Shown here: piece after piece, positions 1 through 44,568 of the stretch
Numbering within the stretch: the stretch's first letter is position 1
Layout of the letters: each line of letters starts with the position of its first letter
Virus genome (UHGV): UHGV-0171754
Source of the DNA: a virus
Length of the DNA stretch: 44,568 bases
Direction: 5' to 3' (one strand)
Notes under the pieces: generated by a model
The model's database searches: none
What the model saw: the letters and a program-made list of their open reading frames with translations, nothing else
What the model was told of the DNA's origin: nothing
Translations under genes and position numbers: made by a program

Positions 1-300
1 GGGGCCAATGACCCCCGTCTAGTCTGAAAGACTGGGCTTTGTCCCGCCTGTCCCGATCGGCTAAACCCCGCGGCAGCACTGGCGGGGACAGGGGTGCTGT
101 CCCGCCTTGTCCCGCCCCATTCTGTCCCGCTTTTTGTCCCGTTTGTTTTATGCACGAAAACTGAATAGATATTCACATTTTGGAGGCGGGACAGATCGGG
201 ACAGCACCCCTGTCCCGCTTTTAATTTATGCAATGAAAGTGAGTATATATGCTGTTTAATGGTGGCGGGACAAAACGGGACGTCCCGCCTGTCCCGCTCC
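1..300. repeat. Element A: dense array of about 13 GTCCCGC / GCGGGAC heptamers in both orientations, following the junction hairpin
   Basis: Copies at about 41-47, 50-56, 83-90(rc), 99-106, 110-116, 124-130, 136-142, 186-193(rc), 197-203(rc), 212-218, 265-272(rc), 277-283(rc), 291-297; no ORF of note on either strand. Confidence 0.8.
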
Positions 301-5857: not shown

Positions 5858-5902
5858 TGCACTGCGGGAATTGGTTGCGCTATATTGGTTGCACACCAAC
5901 AA
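5858..5902 (+). promoter_or_regulatory. Sigma70-like promoter (TTGCAC-18-TATATT) with two TTGGTTGC octamers and a TTGGT-N5-ACCAA palindrome over the start site
   Basis: -35 at 5858-5863, -10 at 5884-5889, octamers at 5874-5881 and 5888-5895, palindrome at 5888-5902; near-identical to the leader at 15946-15960. Confidence 0.5.
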
Positions 5903-15624: not shown

Positions 15625-15930
15625 TTATTTCGCAAGCCGGGCAAATAGTTCGCGCTGGGCTTTAATCCGGGCGACGTTTGCCACTGCCGTCTCACCGATC
15701 CCGAAGCGATACGCCAGGCGCTCGCGGGAGAATGCCTGCGCGTATGCATGGATGGCCTTACGCAACGGCCTCAGTTCGTCCATGCTGGCGCCCATACCGT
15801 AAAGCGCGCTGCGAAGTGATTGATGCGCCAGTATCGCTACCTGAAGCGCCGAGTCTACGTTGCTGTTTAGTGCCTTCGCTTCGTCCAGCTTTGCCACGGC
15901 CAGGGAGTAATTCCAGATAATCGCTTTCAT
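15625..15930 (-). CDS. Putative HTH regulator, first gene of the leftward regulatory/lysis operon
   Basis: 101 aa; GAGGA RBS; C-terminal segment FGIGETAVANVARIKAQRE resembles a helix-turn-helix; promoter/operator immediately upstream. Confidence 0.5.
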   Translation of the reverse strand: MKAIIWNYSLAVAKLDEAKALNSNVDSALQVAILAHQSLRSALYGMGASMDELRPLRKAIHAYAQAFSRERLAYRFGIGETAVANVARIKAQRELFARLAK

Positions 15931-15945
15931 TGTTCAGTCCTCATG

Positions 15946-15995
15946 TTGGTGTGCAACCAATATATCAGGGTGCCAGGCGGGGCGCAACCAATATT
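15946..15995 (-). promoter_or_regulatory. Promoter with extended -10 (TGaTATATT), two TTGGTTGC octamers and TTGGT-N5-ACCAA operator
   Basis: Minus-strand reading attggttgcgccccgcctggcaccctgatatattggttgcacaccaacatgagga ATG; leader nearly identical to 5884-5910. Confidence 0.5.
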
Positions 15996-16145
15996 AATCA
16001 CGCGCATGAAAAAGTCGATCGCTATCTGCTGCAACTGCAAACCGCATTTTTCACCCCCCATTCTGCAACTTGCATTGGTTGCCTAGTTCAGCGACGACCG
16101 CAATCCGCAACATGCTGCCGTGTATTTTGCAATCCTGGATTTTAT

Positions 16146-16198
16146 GCAGTCTCAGACGAGGGGGGTGACAGACCCCCCGTCTAGTCTGAAAGACTGGG
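16146..16198. other. Element B hairpin: interrupted palindrome agacgagggggg-tgacaga-cccccc-gtct plus agtct-gaa-agact
   Basis: Same arms as the window-junction palindrome but different loop (tgacaga versus ccaatga). Confidence 0.6.
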
Positions 16199-16305
16199 GT
16201 GCTGTCCCGCTGTCCCGCTCCTCCCCAGGCCGCGTCATCCGGGGCGGGACAGGGGTGCTGTCCCGCTTTGTCCCGCCTCCTGTTTGTCCCGCTTTTTGTC
16301 CCGCT
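16199..16305. repeat. Element B: array of 7 GTCCCGC / GCGGGAC heptamers, homologous to window positions about 80-150
   Basis: Copies at 16204-16210, 16212-16218, 16245-16251(rc), 16259-16265, 16270-16276, 16285-16291, 16298-16304; block gggacaggggtgctgtcccgc...tttttgtcccg shared with element A. Confidence 0.8.
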
Positions 16306-16349
16306 TACTTTATGCAGTTTTATTGCATAACTATTCACTATATTTACAC

Positions 16350-16471
16350 TACACGGCAACCAATGCGACCAGCTAAAAACACTCAAAATGGCAACCAATG
16401 CGCGCAAAATTTAATCTCTTAGCGATATGGGAATTCCCATACCGGCAACCAATGCGCGCAAAATTTAATCT
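16350..16471. repeat. Iteron-like direct repeats (28 bp x2 plus one partial copy) with a 16 bp perfect palindrome between them
   Basis: ggcaaccaatgcgcgcaaaatttaatct at 16390-16417 and 16444-16471, partial copy ggcaaccaatgcg at 16354-16366; palindrome tatgggaattcccata at 16426-16441; the last repeat overlaps the 3' end of the primase gene. Confidence 0.75.
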
Positions 16472-18735
16472 TTCAGGTCGTCATCGGTCGCCGAAAGCGT
16501 GATGGGTATATTCGTTTTGATGACGATATTCGACGACCCATAGATGGCCCCAGTGTGCGGATCTGTATAAAAACCGAGTACGCCGCGCTCGACCATATCG
16601 TCGATTGCCTTCGTCGATGTGCCACCTTTCGCGAGTCCGGCCTGGCGGACAATTGCCGATTTACTGAATCCAGTATGGTCCGGGTTATCTTCCATCAGTT
16701 TTTCCAGGGCCGCATAAAGCACTTTCTCTTTTTCGTTGCGCGGTCCGGCGGTGTTCTCTTCCTTAACCGCGGCCTTGCCTGCTGCCTTCGCCTGTTCTAT
16801 AGCGAACGGTGCCAGGGCAACCGGTACGAGGTAGAGAGTCTCGTCGCGAGGCGTGGAGGCAATCGGCTTGACGTCCCATCCGGCAACCACGTCGCCGAAG
16901 TCTGGCCCAGTGCTGGTGGACTGGTGCGCCTCGAACGCTTCTGACTTGCGGAGATCTACCTTCACCTTGCACTTGAGCAGGACGAAGCCGCGCGGCGCTT
17001 GCTTGATGCCGTTACGTGACTTCTCATGATACAGGTTCAATTGCCCGGGCTGGTTGTCGTCCGGCTGTTCCAGGAAGAACGCTGAATCGACAGCACCATG
17101 CAGCGCGCCGGACCCGCGTGGGGTTCTGCTGCCGTTTGCACCCTTCGCCGGGTGGTGGATGACGCCCGCACTGCCACCTGTATTTTCCGCAATGGCTTTC
17201 AGCGCTTTGACCACTTCACCCATATCGCTGGCGTTGTTCTCGTCAAACGGTTTAGCATCGGCGGACCGCAGCGCAACAGTCTGGTTGAGTGAGTCGAACG
17301 CCACCAGGCCAACAGGTTCACCGTTAGCGGTGCGATTGATGAAGCTGATAACTTCACGCAAGCCGGACTTGCTTGTGATATCCCAGCCGCGTGATTGCAG
17401 GTCGATAATGTGCAGCTTGTCCAGGTCGTGCTCGTATTTAATCTGCAATGCTTCTTTGCGCTGGTTGGAGGCTTCGCCACCTTCCGCGTCGAAATAGAAG
17501 CAATGAGACTGGACGACCTTCGCACCGCCAAACGGAATACCGGCGGCAACCGCGCCCATCTGCCCAAGCACATAGAAAGACTTACCGATATTCGACTCGC
17601 CAGCCATGTACCAGGTCGATTTAAAGTTAATCAACCCCTCGATGATCGGGTCGTGCTTACTGAACAGCGCAACCGGCTCGTTATCCAGATCCGCATCGGT
17701 GCACACGCCGTATTCTTCGCCGTCGCCAACCGCATCAACAATATGTTCATAGCACGACTCCACTTCCTCGTCGTCCAGCCCCGGAAGGATGGCGGCGATT
17801 TGCTTACGGGACATATTGTGTGGCTCGACGTTCAGGTGGTCCGGGATCCCGATAAGACGTAGCGCCAGGTGCTGGTGTCTGTTCAGTTCCGAGCAACACT
17901 CGTTTCCGGTGTGCATACACTTGAAACGGATCTCGCCATCCTTAACCATTATGGCGGTGGACCCTTCGCCGCTGTGCAGATGTTCGTTCGGGCACGGCAC
18001 CTCATAACCACGCCCGGACGACAGTGGTTCGAATCCTGCCTGGAAGCACCAGTCCAGAATGCCGTCCGCCACTTCGTCGTCTCCCTTGGTTAGTTCGCGG
18101 CGTACTTCCTCTTTATCCACCCCCAGCTTATCCGCCAGGCGAAGCAGACGACGGACGCGGGCACGTTTGCCGTAATGACACTTTATTACAGACTGCTGGT
18201 GTGGCAGGTACATCAGGCGGTTTGTGTCTTTCGTGCAATCGTCGAAGTCCACATCTGACAGACCCAGTTGGGCTAACAGGGCATACTGGGCGCGTCCCAG
18301 GTCTTCAGCCGGTACAGGCTTGTCCGTCAACACCAGGAAGCGAGCGCAACGTGTTCCACCTTTCAGTGGGTGACGGTCGCCGGTTGTGGTGTGAAATACG
18401 TGTTCAAGACCCGCGTCAATGAACGCCTTACGGCAGCGGCGTAGGGTGCGGGTGTCGGTGCGGTCAATATCGAAGAACAGGATCGAGCGGTCCACCGCAC
18501 TGGTCTTACGACGCAATCCGTCACTGGTATACGCCACGATGCCGTCGGCCTTACGCTTGCGGCGCGCATACTCGGCTTTATCTTCCGTCTTGTTGATATG
18601 CACCGAGGAGATTTCTTTCGCATCATTGATAAATTCGAAAAACTCTTCGGTAGTCATCTGGAAGTTTTCCGCCCTGGCTTTTTCGCCTTTTTTAGCGGGT
18701 CTTGTTACGGCGAATTTAATTAAACTCATGGTCAT
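16465..18735 (-). CDS. DNA primase/helicase (N-terminal primase-like domain, Cys cluster, C-terminal RecA-like P-loop ATPase)
   Basis: 756 aa; Walker A AGESNIGKS; Cys cluster CPNEHLHSGEGSTAIMVKDGEIRFKCMHTGNEC. Confidence 0.7.
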   Translation of the reverse strand: MTMSLIKFAVTRPAKKGEKARAENFQMTTEEFFEFINDAKEISSVHINKTEDKAEYARRKRKADGIVAYTSDGLRRKTSAVDRSILFFDIDRTDTRTLRRCRKAFIDAGLEHVFHTTTGDRHPLKGGTRCARFLVLTDKPVPAEDLGRAQYALLAQLGLSDVDFDDCTKDTNRLMYLPHQQSVIKCHYGKRARVRRLLRLADKLGVDKEEVRRELTKGDDEVADGILDWCFQAGFEPLSSGRGYEVPCPNEHLHSGEGSTAIMVKDGEIRFKCMHTGNECCSELNRHQHLALRLIGIPDHLNVEPHNMSRKQIAAILPGLDDEEVESCYEHIVDAVGDGEEYGVCTDADLDNEPVALFSKHDPIIEGLINFKSTWYMAGESNIGKSFYVLGQMGAVAAGIPFGGAKVVQSHCFYFDAEGGEASNQRKEALQIKYEHDLDKLHIIDLQSRGWDITSKSGLREVISFINRTANGEPVGLVAFDSLNQTVALRSADAKPFDENNASDMGEVVKALKAIAENTGGSAGVIHHPAKGANGSRTPRGSGALHGAVDSAFFLEQPDDNQPGQLNLYHEKSRNGIKQAPRGFVLLKCKVKVDLRKSEAFEAHQSTSTGPDFGDVVAGWDVKPIASTPRDETLYLVPVALAPFAIEQAKAAGKAAVKEENTAGPRNEKEKVLYAALEKLMEDNPDHTGFSKSAIVRQAGLAKGGTSTKAIDDMVERGVLGFYTDPHTGAIYGSSNIVIKTNIPITLSATDDDLKD

Positions 18736-18739
18736 AGCC

Positions 18740-19069
18740 TTATTTGGAAGTTTTATTATTGCGTACCCAGGAGCGCACTGTGCTCTGATTAATTCCGGTC
18801 AACTCGGCAATCATCGCCCAAGATTTGCCCTCGGCGCGCAAACGGATAACCTGTTTTTTGTATTCTTCCATTTCTTCATTGTGCTTCTGCAGCTTGCTCG
18901 CCGCCGTACCGTTGAGCAATTCCAGCCTGGCGCGCAATTCTTTTTCGGTAAGTCGCAGACGTTCGATTTCAAATAGCACCGCACCCACGGCATCGGTATA
19001 CGCCCATGACCGGCTTGTCTCACTGCAAACAGTCTTCGTTAACATTTCGATTGCGTCGTTTACATTCAT
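18740..19069 (-). CDS. Transcriptional regulator with C-terminal HTH
   Basis: 109 aa; GAGGG RBS; C-terminal GKSWAMIAELTGINQSTVRSWV is helix-turn-helix-like; coiled-coil centre. Confidence 0.55.
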   Translation of the reverse strand: MNVNDAIEMLTKTVCSETSRSWAYTDAVGAVLFEIERLRLTEKELRARLELLNGTAASKLQKHNEEMEEYKKQVIRLRAEGKSWAMIAELTGINQSTVRSWVRNNKTSK

Positions 19070-19245: not shown

Positions 19246-19275
19246 TTGACACCCATCCTGCAACCAATCTATTAT
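19246..19275 (+). promoter_or_regulatory. Rightward early promoter (TTGACA-18-TATTAT) with GCAACCAA octamer in the spacer
   Basis: -35 at 19246-19251, -10 at 19270-19275, octamer at 19260-19267; about 195 nt leader before first ATG. Confidence 0.5.
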
Positions 19276-21930: not shown

Positions 21931-22105
21931 AGTATTTGCGATCTTATTGATGTTTTTGCTCGGCGCGCTGGGCTTTATCCTGCATTGCGTGCAAGGCGTG
22001 TTAATGGTGGCGTGGATTGCGAGACATGGCGACCGACCGCCGTTAAGCTGGGTCGAGAACACCATCTACTATGTGACCAGAAATCTTTTTAATGAAAATG
22101 CTTGA
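21923..22105 (+). CDS. Small membrane protein (60 aa)
   Basis: Hydrophobic N-terminus (VFAILLMFLLGALGFIL); GAGGA RBS; overlaps upstream stop. Confidence 0.4.
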   Translation: MNKVFAILLMFLLGALGFILHCVQGVLMVAWIARHGDRPPLSWVENTIYYVTRNLFNENA

Positions 22106-22137
22106 CCGCTTAGGCGCAACCAAGTAGATTAGCAACC
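22102..22137 (+). promoter_or_regulatory. Candidate promoter (TTGACC-17-TAGATT) with two GCAACCAA octamers
   Basis: -35 at 22102-22107, -10 at 22125-22130, octamers at 22116-22123 and 22130-22137. Confidence 0.4.
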
Positions 22138-22195
22138 AAGCCGAACGGGGTGGCTCATAATAACCCCGATACATGTGAGAATGAGGAATTGGAAA

Positions 22196-25497: not shown

Positions 25498-26099
25498 TGA
25501 AACATTGTGGGCGTTGTAATACGGATAAAGATGAGTCCGCTTTCAACAAGGGTCAGTCGTGGTGCGCCAAATGCATGGCGGCGTATAAGAAAGAGAGACG
25601 GGATAAGGAAAGAGGAGCGCCGCCGCGCGAAGTATGGCGAGAGTATACCGGGGAAGTCGTAACATGCCGTACGTGCGGAGAGCGCAAGCGGCTCACGCCG
25701 GAAAACTTCCGGCCCGGAAACCGGGCAAGCCAGTCTCATATTCGTAAAGAATGCCGGTTGTGCGCTAATAAGTCCCGCCGTGAGTACAACCACCGGTCAC
25801 CAGAGGTCCGCGCATACTATAAGCTCTTTCAGTACCGTAAGGCGGACGAAAGGAAGGGGTTAAAAACCGACCTTACCACCGAGGACGTGCTACGCCTTAC
25901 TTCTCAGCCATGCGCGTACTGCGGATTCACCGGCGACAATGGCGCGGACCGACTCGACAACGCAGTAGGCCATACGAAAGATAACTGCGTACCGTGCTGC
26001 GTAGAGTGCAACATAGCCCGCGGTGACCGGTTTACCCCGGACGAAATGAAGAAGTTTATTGGGCCTGCCATAGCTGCCGTAAGGAAAAGCCGACAATGA
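25498..26099 (+). CDS. HNH endonuclease with N-terminal Cys-rich zinc-ribbon region
   Basis: 200 aa from ATG (MKHCGRCNTDKD) with GGGGG RBS; C-terminal CAYCGFTGDNGADRLDNAVGHTKDNCVPCCVECNIARGD. Confidence 0.6.
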
Positions 26100-26374
26100 C
26101 ACCAGAAGGCAAGATCCAAAGTCACCTTATGAAGTTGGTTAAAGCCGTAGGCGGATTCTGCCGTAAAGTGGCATGGGAGGGGCGCGCGGGTGCGCCCGAT
26201 CTGATTATCATCATCAACGGCAAAATAGTGTTCGTCGAAGTGAAGCGCCCAGGCGGCAAACCGAAGCCGCACCAGATACGAGAACATGAGCGAATGGCCC
26301 GCCGCGGTGCGGACGTTCGCGTTATCGACAACATAGCAGACTGTGATTTATTGGTTGCTGAGTTGGTCGCGTAG
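26096..26374 (+). CDS. VRR-NUC domain nuclease
   Basis: 92 aa; PDLIIIINGKIVFVEVKRPGGKPKPHQ signature; start overlaps upstream stop (ATGA). Confidence 0.65.
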   Translation: MTPEGKIQSHLMKLVKAVGGFCRKVAWEGRAGAPDLIIIINGKIVFVEVKRPGGKPKPHQIREHERMARRGADVRVIDNIADCDLLVAELVA

Positions 26375-29291: not shown

Positions 29292-29296
29292 ATTGG

Positions 29297-29325
29297 TTGC
29301 ATAACCGTATTGGTTGCATTATATT
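29297..29325 (+). promoter_or_regulatory. Candidate promoter (TTGCAT-17-TATATT) with two direct TTGGTTGC octamers
   Basis: Octamers at 29295-29302 and 29310-29317; second ends 2 nt before the -10, same spacing as at 5874/5884 and 31235/31245. Confidence 0.45.
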
Positions 29326-30766: not shown

Positions 30767-31233
30767 AATTACTGATTTGCGATTTGGATGGCGTTATTAA
30801 CGGTTCAAGCGATGCGCGTGCCGACCTGGTGCCTGGGATAAAAACTAAATCCACCTTTTGGGCGAAGTGGCACAAGGCGCACGTCCGCGAAGATCTGAAC
30901 ATGGATATGCTGCCGCTGCTGACCATGTACAAAGAGCAAGGCTTCGAAATCGCGTATCTGACCAACCGGCAGCGGGAATGCTGGGAAACCACCGCCGAAC
31001 AACTGGAAGTATTCCCGACAGGCCGGTTGTTTATGCGCCACATGCTGGACGATACCCCGCCGCCAGAGTTTAAGGCGTGCGCCGTGTTCAAAATGGTCTG
31101 CTATGCGGACGTGTCGGAACTGGTCATCATTGAAGATTGCGAGAAGAACATCGCGGCAATTCGTCGGGCGTGTGGCGATTTGGTCCCGAAAATTTACGCA
31201 ATAAACGTTGCAAAATTCACTTGCAACCAATAG
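30763..31233 (+). CDS. HAD-superfamily phosphatase-like protein (possible nucleotidase)
   Basis: 156 aa; N-terminal LICDLDGVIN resembles the HAD motif I (DxDG). Confidence 0.45.
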   Translation: MKLLICDLDGVINGSSDARADLVPGIKTKSTFWAKWHKAHVREDLNMDMLPLLTMYKEQGFEIAYLTNRQRECWETTAEQLEVFPTGRLFMRHMLDDTPPPEFKACAVFKMVCYADVSELVIIEDCEKNIAAIRRACGDLVPKIYAINVAKFTCNQ

Positions 31234-31250
31234 GTTGGTTGCAGTATCTT
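31221..31250 (+). promoter_or_regulatory. Candidate promoter (TTGCAA-18-TATCTT) containing inverted octamer pair TTGCAACCAA-tagg-TTGGTTGCA
   Basis: Perfect inverted repeat at 31222-31244 spanning the -35 and spacer. Confidence 0.4.
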
Positions 31251-34339: not shown

Positions 34340-34371
34340 TTGGTTGCATTCGTGATTGAGCGGTGTAATAC
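34340..34371 (+). promoter_or_regulatory. Candidate promoter (TTGCAT-16-TAATAC) with TTGGTTGC octamer for the lipoprotein gene
   Basis: Octamer at 34340-34347; -10 at 34366-34371. Confidence 0.4.
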
Positions 34372-44485: not shown

Positions 44486-44568
44486 TATGCAGTCCCCCTT
44501 TTTATGCAGTTGCCGTCGGTCATTGTATCAGCGAATTTAAAACAAACCTTATTCAGTCTCAGACGAGG
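44486..44568. other. Left half of element A: untranslated leader upstream of the tape measure gene, ending in ...cagtctcagacgagg, which pairs with window positions 1-30 to form a GC-rich interrupted palindrome
   Basis: End of window plus start of window reads agacgagggggg-ccaatga-ccccc-gtct followed by agtct-gaa-agact; near-identical structure at 16146-16198. Confidence 0.5.

Follow-up and report, generated by a model that had tools for sequence, protein, structure and literature searches.

Dispersed boxes, a recent tandem duplication and a candidate origin module in the repeat region behind the primase-helicase gene of a Dhillonvirus

The virus genome UHGV-0171754 (44,568 nucleotides (nt), here called the window) is a Dhillonvirus (HK578-like) coliphage genome, complete and circularly permuted, and the end of the window runs directly into its start. 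The subject of this study is the repeat-rich DNA at the 3′ end of its primase-helicase gene. With the annotation of phage Bas84 transferred onto the window as a gene map, the minus strand forms one long 31-kb unit that begins with a small helix-turn-helix (HTH) protein and the primase-helicase. A 537-base-pair (bp) gap (15931–16467) follows, then small genes, lysis genes, the terminase and the head and tail-tube genes; the unit closes, after a second gap spanning the window junction, with the tape-measure and tail genes. A replication-gene unit on the plus strand, from 19.1 to 32.5 kb, encodes an exonuclease, a gp2.5-like single-stranded DNA-binding protein (SSB), DNA polymerase A, an SNF2 helicase and methyltransferases. 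The region of the repeats is 88–93% identical to about 150 records of Escherichia, Shigella and Sodalis phages. All features are listed with their coordinates in Table 1; labels such as L028 designate relatives used for comparison.

The original prediction for this locus was built on two exact copies of a 28-mer, GGCAACCAATGCGCGCAAAATTTAATCT, and both are present, with a similarity that extends to 33 nt at 94% identity. The copy nearer the gene does overlap its end; it spans the stop codon, the final codon and a single base of the penultimate codon. The proposed partial third copy also exists (GGCAACCAATGCG, 13 nt), although at 16355–16367, one base off the interval 16354–16366 first given for it, and TATGGGAATTCCCATA, between the two full repeats, is the sole perfect 16-nt palindrome in the window. 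Chance expectations were derived from 200 Markov-simulated genomes, none of which had a 28-nt sequence directly and exactly repeated within 200 nt; the longest simulated repeat was 14 nt. Missing from the prediction were the inverted core at 16072–16083, two further core copies at 15953–15992 and an array of a different repeat, the octamer TGTCCCGC, at 16203–16304.

Comparison of 17 close relatives revealed that the 28-mers vary in copy number. The distance from the primase stop codon to a GAATAGTTATGCA element in the gap is 154 nt in genomes with two 28-mers and the palindrome, 100 nt in those with one 28-mer and no palindrome, and 84 nt in EP23-type genomes, which have neither; GenBank matches sort into coverage classes equal to these three length types. 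In Teewinot (L102), positions 585–854 hold 5.1 repeats of a 53-nt unit (96% identity), and in SM_S22 (L101) the octamer block is perfectly duplicated (111 nt x 2) at positions 412–634. The 28-mer and octamer arrays are hot spots of recent tandem duplication. In the window, the second copy can be aligned with the 3′ end of the gene over more than the 28-mer (CCGATGACGACCTGAAAGATTAA... against CCCATATCG--CTAAGAGATTAA...). Judging by this alignment, the 53–54-nt unit arose by tandem duplication of the final primase codons together with the stop codon and the first 9-bp box behind it, and has since decayed. With copy numbers between 0 and about 6, relatives gain and lose units of this array freely. 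The exact match of the two 28-mers is therefore a sign that the duplication is recent, not that the sequence is constrained, and additional copies can be dispensed with. The box inside array copies is mutated to ATTGGTCGC in some relatives, and only the third box, which lies beside the AT-rich block, is kept in every relative.

The palindrome, which had been proposed as part of the origin, does not retain that role. Taken alone it is unremarkable, because 52% of the simulated genomes have a perfect 16-nt palindrome (0.83 expected per genome of such size). It is absent in one-copy genomes and imperfect in most two-copy genomes, including bob, Bas84, L002, L006 and L015. The central EcoRI site is lost in every variant, GAATTC being destroyed by substitution in five of five variant-palindrome relatives (L001, L002, L006, L015 and L027). 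The palindrome is incidental, a by-product of the duplication junction. As a separate observation, the genome has just three EcoRI sites where about 8.6 are expected, and the palindrome contains one of them. Palindromes of 6 bp are avoided genome-wide and thirteen are entirely absent, which suggests strong restriction-site avoidance.

These data bear directly on the proposal that the primase binds the 28-bp repeats as the iterons of an origin in which the palindrome has an auxiliary role. The repeats are far beyond chance, they lie at the end of the primase-helicase gene and beside a segment (16305–16352) with 75% AT compared with 45% for the genome, the spacing of the 53–54-bp units corresponds to about 5 helical turns, and a homologous box is concentrated at the primase 3′ end in the relatives L025 and L026. 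However, viable close relatives carry 0, 1, 2 or about 6 units, the core is mutated in some copies, and the second copy is a decayed duplicate of a coding 3′ end. Where iterons would comprise at least three similar repeats conserved among close relatives, this genome has two full copies and a partial one of 13 nt. Nor is the repeat specific to the locus: its 9-nt core occurs 19 times genome-wide, mostly at promoters. Furthermore, the primase C-terminus of L025 is unrelated and yet its box is nearly the same, a second module paralogous to the gap (region A, described below) is free of boxes, and the palindrome, which lacks statistical significance, is missing or imperfect in most relatives. We therefore regard an iteron function of the 28-mers as improbable.

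The functional unit appears to be the 9-bp box ATTGGTTGC and not the 28-mer, and on sequence grounds it is a candidate asymmetric site for a phage-encoded DNA-binding protein. Written as GCAACCAA, for which ATTGGTTGC is the other-strand consensus, the box is found 19 times in the window where one or two copies are expected, and 15 of the 19 fall within the 9.5% of the genome that is non-coding. Bas84 has 21 boxes, 16 of them in its 6.5% non-coding DNA. The more distant lineage L028 (69% identity) has 13, with 11 intergenic and at equivalent places, namely in the region of the divergent early promoters, ahead of the SSB gene, behind the primase gene and ahead of the gene that follows. Six boxes in the window lie within the 537-bp gap.

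Many of the intergenic boxes coincide with sigma-70-like promoter elements, which contain 11 of the 15 compared with 4.6 ± 1.7 for random intergenic positions (P about 0.004), an association that has to be read with the caveat that the TTGC of the box can itself mimic a −35 element. The sequence TATATTGGTTGCACACCAAC is common to the promoters of hyp7 and hyp56. Box orientation relative to local transcription is mixed (about 11 versus 8) and is flipped in the post-primase sites of L028, and therefore fits a site for protein binding to duplex DNA, not an RNA signal or a stoperator. With many copies, an intergenic location and, under the TTGC caveat, overlap with promoters, the box has the properties of an operator, and a protein bound to boxes in or against the −35 and −10 elements of early and middle promoters would control transcription. 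The only close-range inverted pair of boxes, at 31223–31242, forms a near-palindrome (GCAACCAATAGGTTGGTTGC) at the PNK/hyp30 junction and overlaps a TTGCAA-18-TATCTT promoter-like site.

From its sequence, the HTH protein encoded just ahead of the primase-helicase is the most likely candidate for binding the box. Its motif SWAMIAELTGINxSTVRSWVRN is near-invariant in the window, L014, L028 and L029 and similar in L013, and it stays while the N-terminus of the protein and the neighbouring proteins diverge. A protein of this HTH_23 type is present in all Dhillonvirus-type lineages that carry the box. Two other candidates were considered and set aside: hyp56, encoded behind the gap, is missing from L028 although the boxes are kept there, and the winged helix of the primase is an unlikely binder given that the C-terminus of L025 is unrelated while its box is nearly the same. 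In phage HK578, mutants that escape the OLD defence map to the gp45–gp46 operon (the HTH protein and the helicase-primase) and its promoter, which the authors of that work read in terms of replication initiation.

The order of the two genes, a small DNA-binding protein before a helicase, is also that of the classic initiator-helicase pair, and the box could be the site of a dual initiator-regulator, DnaA- or lambda O-like, encoded by the small gene; the box cluster would then mark the origin and bring in the primase-helicase, single boxes at promoters would regulate transcription, and the octamers would serve something else. The six boxes in the gap flank the AT-rich and octamer core, at least one box beside the AT-rich element is kept in all Dhillonvirus relatives, and in L025 boxes are the only clustered repeats near AT-rich DNA after the primase gene. 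The link between the HK578 gp45–gp46 operon and replication-dependent activation of OLD would fit as well. However, the paralogous region A is without boxes, the family of the small protein differs between Dhillonvirus and the distant lineages despite the similar box, and neither the number nor the orientation of the boxes in the gap is conserved, and we judge this explanation to be quite unlikely.

The second class of repeats, the octamer TGTCCCGC, occurs in 18 copies where 2 are expected, seven of them in the gap (region B, 16203–16304) and eight at 40–297 in region A, which is located between the tail-chaperone and tape-measure genes, 16 kb from region B. The two regions are paralogous, with 81% identity over 182 columns between 16142–16316 and the stretch from 44549 through the junction to 154. 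Along the direction of transcription, an AT-rich element with TTATGCA is followed in both by four octamers in direct orientation and one inverted copy within a GC-rich spacer; two further octamers, nested hairpins (z = −4.9) and a segment with ACGGCA[GA]C / TGCATAA complete the order. Region A contains zero ATTGGTTGC boxes. The two stretches were annotated independently as the repeat regions "region A" and "region B" in the record of Sodalis phage SO-1, and the record of phage bob also has a repeat_region at the locus.

A similar layout follows the primase stop codon in phages with primases 37–83% identical to that of the window, where GAATAGTTATGCA in the AT-rich element is nearly unchanged, and is kept even at 37–45% primase identity, while the short repeats differ. 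In place of the octamer of the window, L014 has AACGGGACAA, L029 has GTGGCA, L021 has AGGGATAA, L022 has CCGACARAA and L026 has GGGGATGA. A fixed architecture with lineage-specific repeats is, as far as alignments can tell, iteron-like behavior of the octamers, and the module has the layout expected of an origin, with clustered repeats, an AT-rich neighbor, an initiator/helicase gene beside it and a lineage-specific repeat sequence. Scans of L021 and L022 for exact iteron dimers recovered only the known module and no second one, though spacing may differ there, and a search of Rfam with the region returned no match at E <= 1. TTATGCA was also considered as a DnaA box, but only 7 of 9 positions match the consensus TTATNCACA, and this is not claimed.

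The hairpins and the position of the two modules allow a purely transcriptional explanation, in which the gap is a boundary where the early HTH-primase operon ends and the middle/late unit starts, with boxes as operators or roadblocks, hairpins as terminators or processing sites and octamers as sites for a late regulator, and there is no origin. Both modules are indeed at operon joints of the 31-kb minus-strand unit with a promoter-like site after each, the hairpins are stable (z = −4.9) with conserved stems, and the boxes elsewhere are promoter-associated. Yet a consensus scan of the gap found no intrinsic terminator and no consensus promoter, the hairpins are without a U-tract, and the downstream genes have their own promoters 100–200 nt past the module. 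Seven or eight lineage-specific octamers beside a conserved AT-rich element, at just two loci, would also be unusual for a promoter. We consider a boundary without an origin unlikely.

The modules or boxes might alternatively be packaging sites (pac or cos) for the small terminase subunit. Two groups of clustered short repeats resemble the pac site of phage P1. In addition, the window ends inside the region A hairpin, and three GenBank records (PTXU06, Zar3M and WFI) start in the gap. These starts were examined as possible physical genome ends and rejected as linearization points only, with no terminal repeat: PTXU06 was merely linearized upstream of the first gene, and other records start elsewhere. 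The break of the window at this place is what an assembly ending within a repeat would show, and both modules lie far away from the terminase genes. A role in packaging is accordingly very improbable. The ends of the window (44540–44568 joined to 1–40) fall within the region A hairpin and the contig of the relative L029 likewise stops within region B, which is consistent with assembly breaks at repeats and not with physical termini.

The primase-helicase matched only the RepA-type AAA_25 family in Pfam, and a profile search of the PDB gave a weak match to RSF1010 RepA (1G8Y, E = 0.076); sequence and profile searches of the PDB returned no match to P4 alpha or T7 gp4. The consensus of its protein family, phrog_3228, has an N-terminal LFIDLDG motif and a Cys/His cluster, which we take to be primase-like. 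The last approximately 60 residues are the most divergent part of the protein when compared with distant relatives (14–26% identity, versus 50–70% in the helicase core). In an AlphaFold2 model this C-terminus is predicted to form three helices and a beta-hairpin, a winged helix, with predicted local distance difference test (pLDDT) values of 80–88. L025, which has no octamers, also has no alignable winged helix. The protein ends in an acidic tail that is conserved in character (16465–16485), as DDDLKD here and DEDLE, DLED or DDLGD in distant relatives. The acidic C-termini of T7 gp4 and gp2.5, which make contact with the DNA polymerase, are similar to it.

Taken together, the reading we prefer, with confidence that goes no further than halfway, is that the boxes are sites of a regulator, the HTH protein, that the 28-mers are a dispensable recent duplication, and that the octamers and the AT-rich core are the likelier origin, read by the winged helix of the primase-helicase. 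What survives of the origin layout originally proposed next to the primase gene is an origin-like non-coding region directly after the gene and a predicted C-terminal winged helix, without the 28-mers and palindrome as iterons. Region B would be a composite of boxes, the 75%-AT element with its TTATGCA pair, seven TGTCCCGC octamers and hairpins. The C-terminal winged helix would read the octamers, the primase-helicase would then load itself at the AT-rich element, and the flanking boxes would tie regulator occupancy or incoming transcription to the origin site. We infer that replication may start at the octamer and AT-rich core of region B, as the only origin or as one of two, and that region A may be a second origin or an enhancer; the assignment of the two proteins to the boxes and octamers is likewise proposed, not observed.

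Several observations weigh against this reading. In a fold search with the C-terminal model the top matches were all generic winged-helix domains and none was significant (E >= 0.09). The correspondence between octamer type and winged-helix sequence is not clean, as the window and L028 agree in their octamers and differ in the putative recognition helix, whereas the helices of L021 and L022 are similar and their octamers are not. Phage Jersey has the primase family, lacks the octamer module and has only one box. With respect to the boxes, L025 and L026 have a near-identical box, CA[AG]CCAAC, confined to the primase 3′ end and the downstream gap, in combination with a small protein of XRE type, which weakens the assignment to the HTH protein and makes an origin role for the box possible. 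The promoter association is partly circular for the reason given above, and the boxes of the two 28-mers and the inverted box at 16072–16083 are outside promoter-like contexts, so that their role is unexplained by promoter control. Finally, our literature searches found no binding, transcription or replication data for any Dhillonvirus.

Other observations concern the wider genome. The octamer ACGGCA[GA]C occurs in 51 copies across the whole window (for example at 16114–16121, 16353–16360 and 44509–44516), with 45 in coding sequence, in several reading frames, compared with 7.9 ± 2.8 in synonymous-codon shuffles. It is strand-polar, with 38 copies on the minus and 13 on the plus strand; the ratio is 29:5 among the structural genes, and the two strands are balanced in the block of replication genes. 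It is similarly dense in all distant relatives with primases 37–45% identical, and less so in Jersey (20 copies). This octamer could be a priming, Chi-like or packaging-polarity signal. GC skew was considered as an indicator of the origin and discarded as uninformative, because its minimum near 19 kb and its maximum near 32–33 kb coincide with switches in gene orientation. Between the genes for DNA polymerase and an endonuclease, a 669-bp "gap" contains an open frame (approximately 25498–26095) with many Cys pairs and an HNH-like motif (...GHTKDNCVPCCVECNIARGD...). No mapped Bas84 protein covers this frame, and Bas84 itself has just about 190 nt between its polymerase and endonuclease genes. 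The frame may be the insertion of a mobile HNH endonuclease.

Table 1. Coordinates of genes, repeats and promoter-like sites discussed in the text (window positions unless a relative is named).
Feature	Position	Strand	Remarks
Primase-helicase, 756 aa, phrog_3228	16465..18735	-	AAA_25 core, residues 359-533; predicted winged helix, residues ~666-740; acidic tail DDDLKD
HTH protein, 109 aa (HTH_23 / sigma-70 region 4-like)	18740..19069	-	First gene of the primase-helicase operon; candidate ATTGGTTGC binder
28-mer copy overlapping the gene end	16444..16471		Overlaps primase-helicase stop (TAA 16465-16467, minus strand); box GCAACCAAT at 16445-16453
Second exact 28-mer	16390..16417		With 16418-16443 makes up the 54-nt unit, present or absent among relatives
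Perfect 16-nt palindrome TATGGGAATTCCCATA	16426..16441		Central EcoRI site, gone in most relatives; restricted to multi-copy genomes
Third box GGCAACCAATGCG	16355..16367		Abuts AT-rich element; in every Dhillonvirus relative examined; one core substitution in bob
75%-AT element	16305..16352		Inverted TTATGCA pair (16310-16316, 16324-16330); candidate DNA-unwinding or factor-binding element
Region B, seven TGTCCCGC octamers	16203..16304		Six direct, one inverted; iteron-like
TTATGCA, then nested GC-rich hairpins	16142..16199		GGGGGGT/ACCCCCC inside AGTCT..CAGAC; stems conserved, loops variable
ACACGGCAGCA box	16114..16124	-	Conserved in L014, L021, L022, L026; one copy of octamer ACGGCA[GA]C
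Inverted copy of 12-nt box core GCATTGGTTGCC	16072..16083		
Two boxes before hyp56	15953..15992		Overlap sigma-70-like promoter (TTGCGC-17-TATATT, minus strand, 15987-15959) of next gene hyp56 (15625-15930)
Region A, paralogous module	1..300, continuing from 44549-44568 over the circular junction		Eight octamers, two AT-rich TTATGCA segments, same hairpins
Best promoter-like site TTGACA-18-TATTAT (11/12)	19246..19275	+	Box in spacer (TTGACA-N8-box-N2-TATTAT)
Promoter-like site TTGACC-N8-box-N1-TAGATT	22102-22130		Followed by second box
Boxes next to −10-like elements	29310; 31235		TTGGTTGC ends 2 nt ahead of TATATT or TATCTT; predicted promoters 29296-29325 and 31221-31250
Other dispersed boxes	5871-5892; 22116-22139; 26351-26358; 29293-29317; 31223-31242; 34340-34347		
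Near-identical boxes GCAACCAAC or CAGCCAACA at primase 3′ end	L025 5260-5570; L026 5100-5570		

Dhillonviruses are common phages of E. coli and Shigella and are represented in the BASEL reference collection, with more than 150 related records in GenBank. The literature on Dhillonvirus, SO-1, HK578 and YD-2008.s that we searched describes no mapped origin, no promoters, no regulator and none of these repeats, and searches with the motif strings returned unrelated primer sequences only. Beyond the annotation notes of SO-1 and bob, our searches found no earlier dissection into box, octamer and AT-rich element and no earlier analysis of copy number. The present analysis turns a "repeat region" into testable parts: the box with its candidate binder, the octamers with their candidate reader, the TTATGCA element and the second module. 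If the origin reading holds, it would define a replicon for the engineering of Dhillonviruses, would explain why HK578 escapers of OLD map to the HTH/helicase-primase operon, and would provide one more, independent case of a primase-helicase that loads itself and has bipartite iteron sites. Should it fail, the region would keep its use as a copy-number marker of the variable number tandem repeat (VNTR) kind, and as a frequent cause of assembly breaks in Dhillonvirus.

By analogy, the closest functional counterparts of this arrangement may be P4 alpha with ori and crr, the origins 3′ of rep genes in Staphylococcus aureus pathogenicity islands (SaPIs) and dairy phages, and RSF1010 oriV. Satellite phage P4 reportedly encodes in alpha a primase, a helicase and a C-terminal winged helix, with octamer iterons (TGTTCACC) in ori and crr. 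The phage studied here likewise has octamers (TGTCCCGC) in both orientations and in two clusters kilobases apart (seven in B and eight in A, 16 kb from each other), and a single polypeptide with primase, helicase and, as predicted, a C-terminal winged helix. However, its helicase core has the RecA fold of the AAA_25 (RepA-like) family and not that of the P4-type superfamily 3 (SF3), there is no sequence match to alpha or to its origin-binding domain, and homology to P4 is not indicated. It is also a lytic siphophage of 44.6 kb, with its second module in the tail-gene block and an extra class of dispersed boxes. A wider model would make of this likeness a two-module origin, B together with A in the tail-gene block, whose octamers are read by the winged helix of the RepA-fold primase-helicase as a convergent, non-homologous counterpart of P4 alpha, ori and crr; the HTH protein, on boxes at promoters as well as near the origin, would couple transcription to initiation, and ACGGCA[GA]C might mark priming or recombination sites. 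We offer this combination as a speculation and think it doubtful as a whole.

The origins of SaPIs and of dairy streptococcal and lactococcal phages are said to lie just 3′ of the primase or rep gene. The likeness is in the non-coding region directly downstream of a primase/helicase gene, in short element-specific iterons beside an AT-rich stretch and, as a candidate feature here, in the specificity of the helicase C-terminus. The proteins are unrelated, and the phage differs further in having two classes of repeats on the flanks of its AT-rich element and a second, paralogous module. RSF1010 and other IncQ plasmids share with this phage a RepA helicase core of the same Pfam family (AAA_25), and their oriV combines iterons, a GC-rich segment, an AT-rich segment and hairpin initiation signals, for which the hairpins described here would be putative single-strand initiation (ssi) counterparts. 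In RSF1010, iteron binding, helicase and primase are functions of three proteins and the iterons are 20 bp long, whereas here the functions are fused and the repeats are of 8 bp. The dispersed box is comparable to DnaA boxes and to the stoperators of mycobacteriophage L5 in being a short asymmetric site with many copies, enriched in intergenic and promoter DNA and with one denser cluster; however, it lacks the uniform direction of stoperators (about 11 versus 8) and belongs to a virulent phage, and ATTGGTTGC is not a DnaA box sequence. There is also a match by homology: regions A and B of SO-1 and the repeat_region of bob are the same loci, already flagged in those records for direct, inverted and palindromic repeats and for the similarity between A and B.

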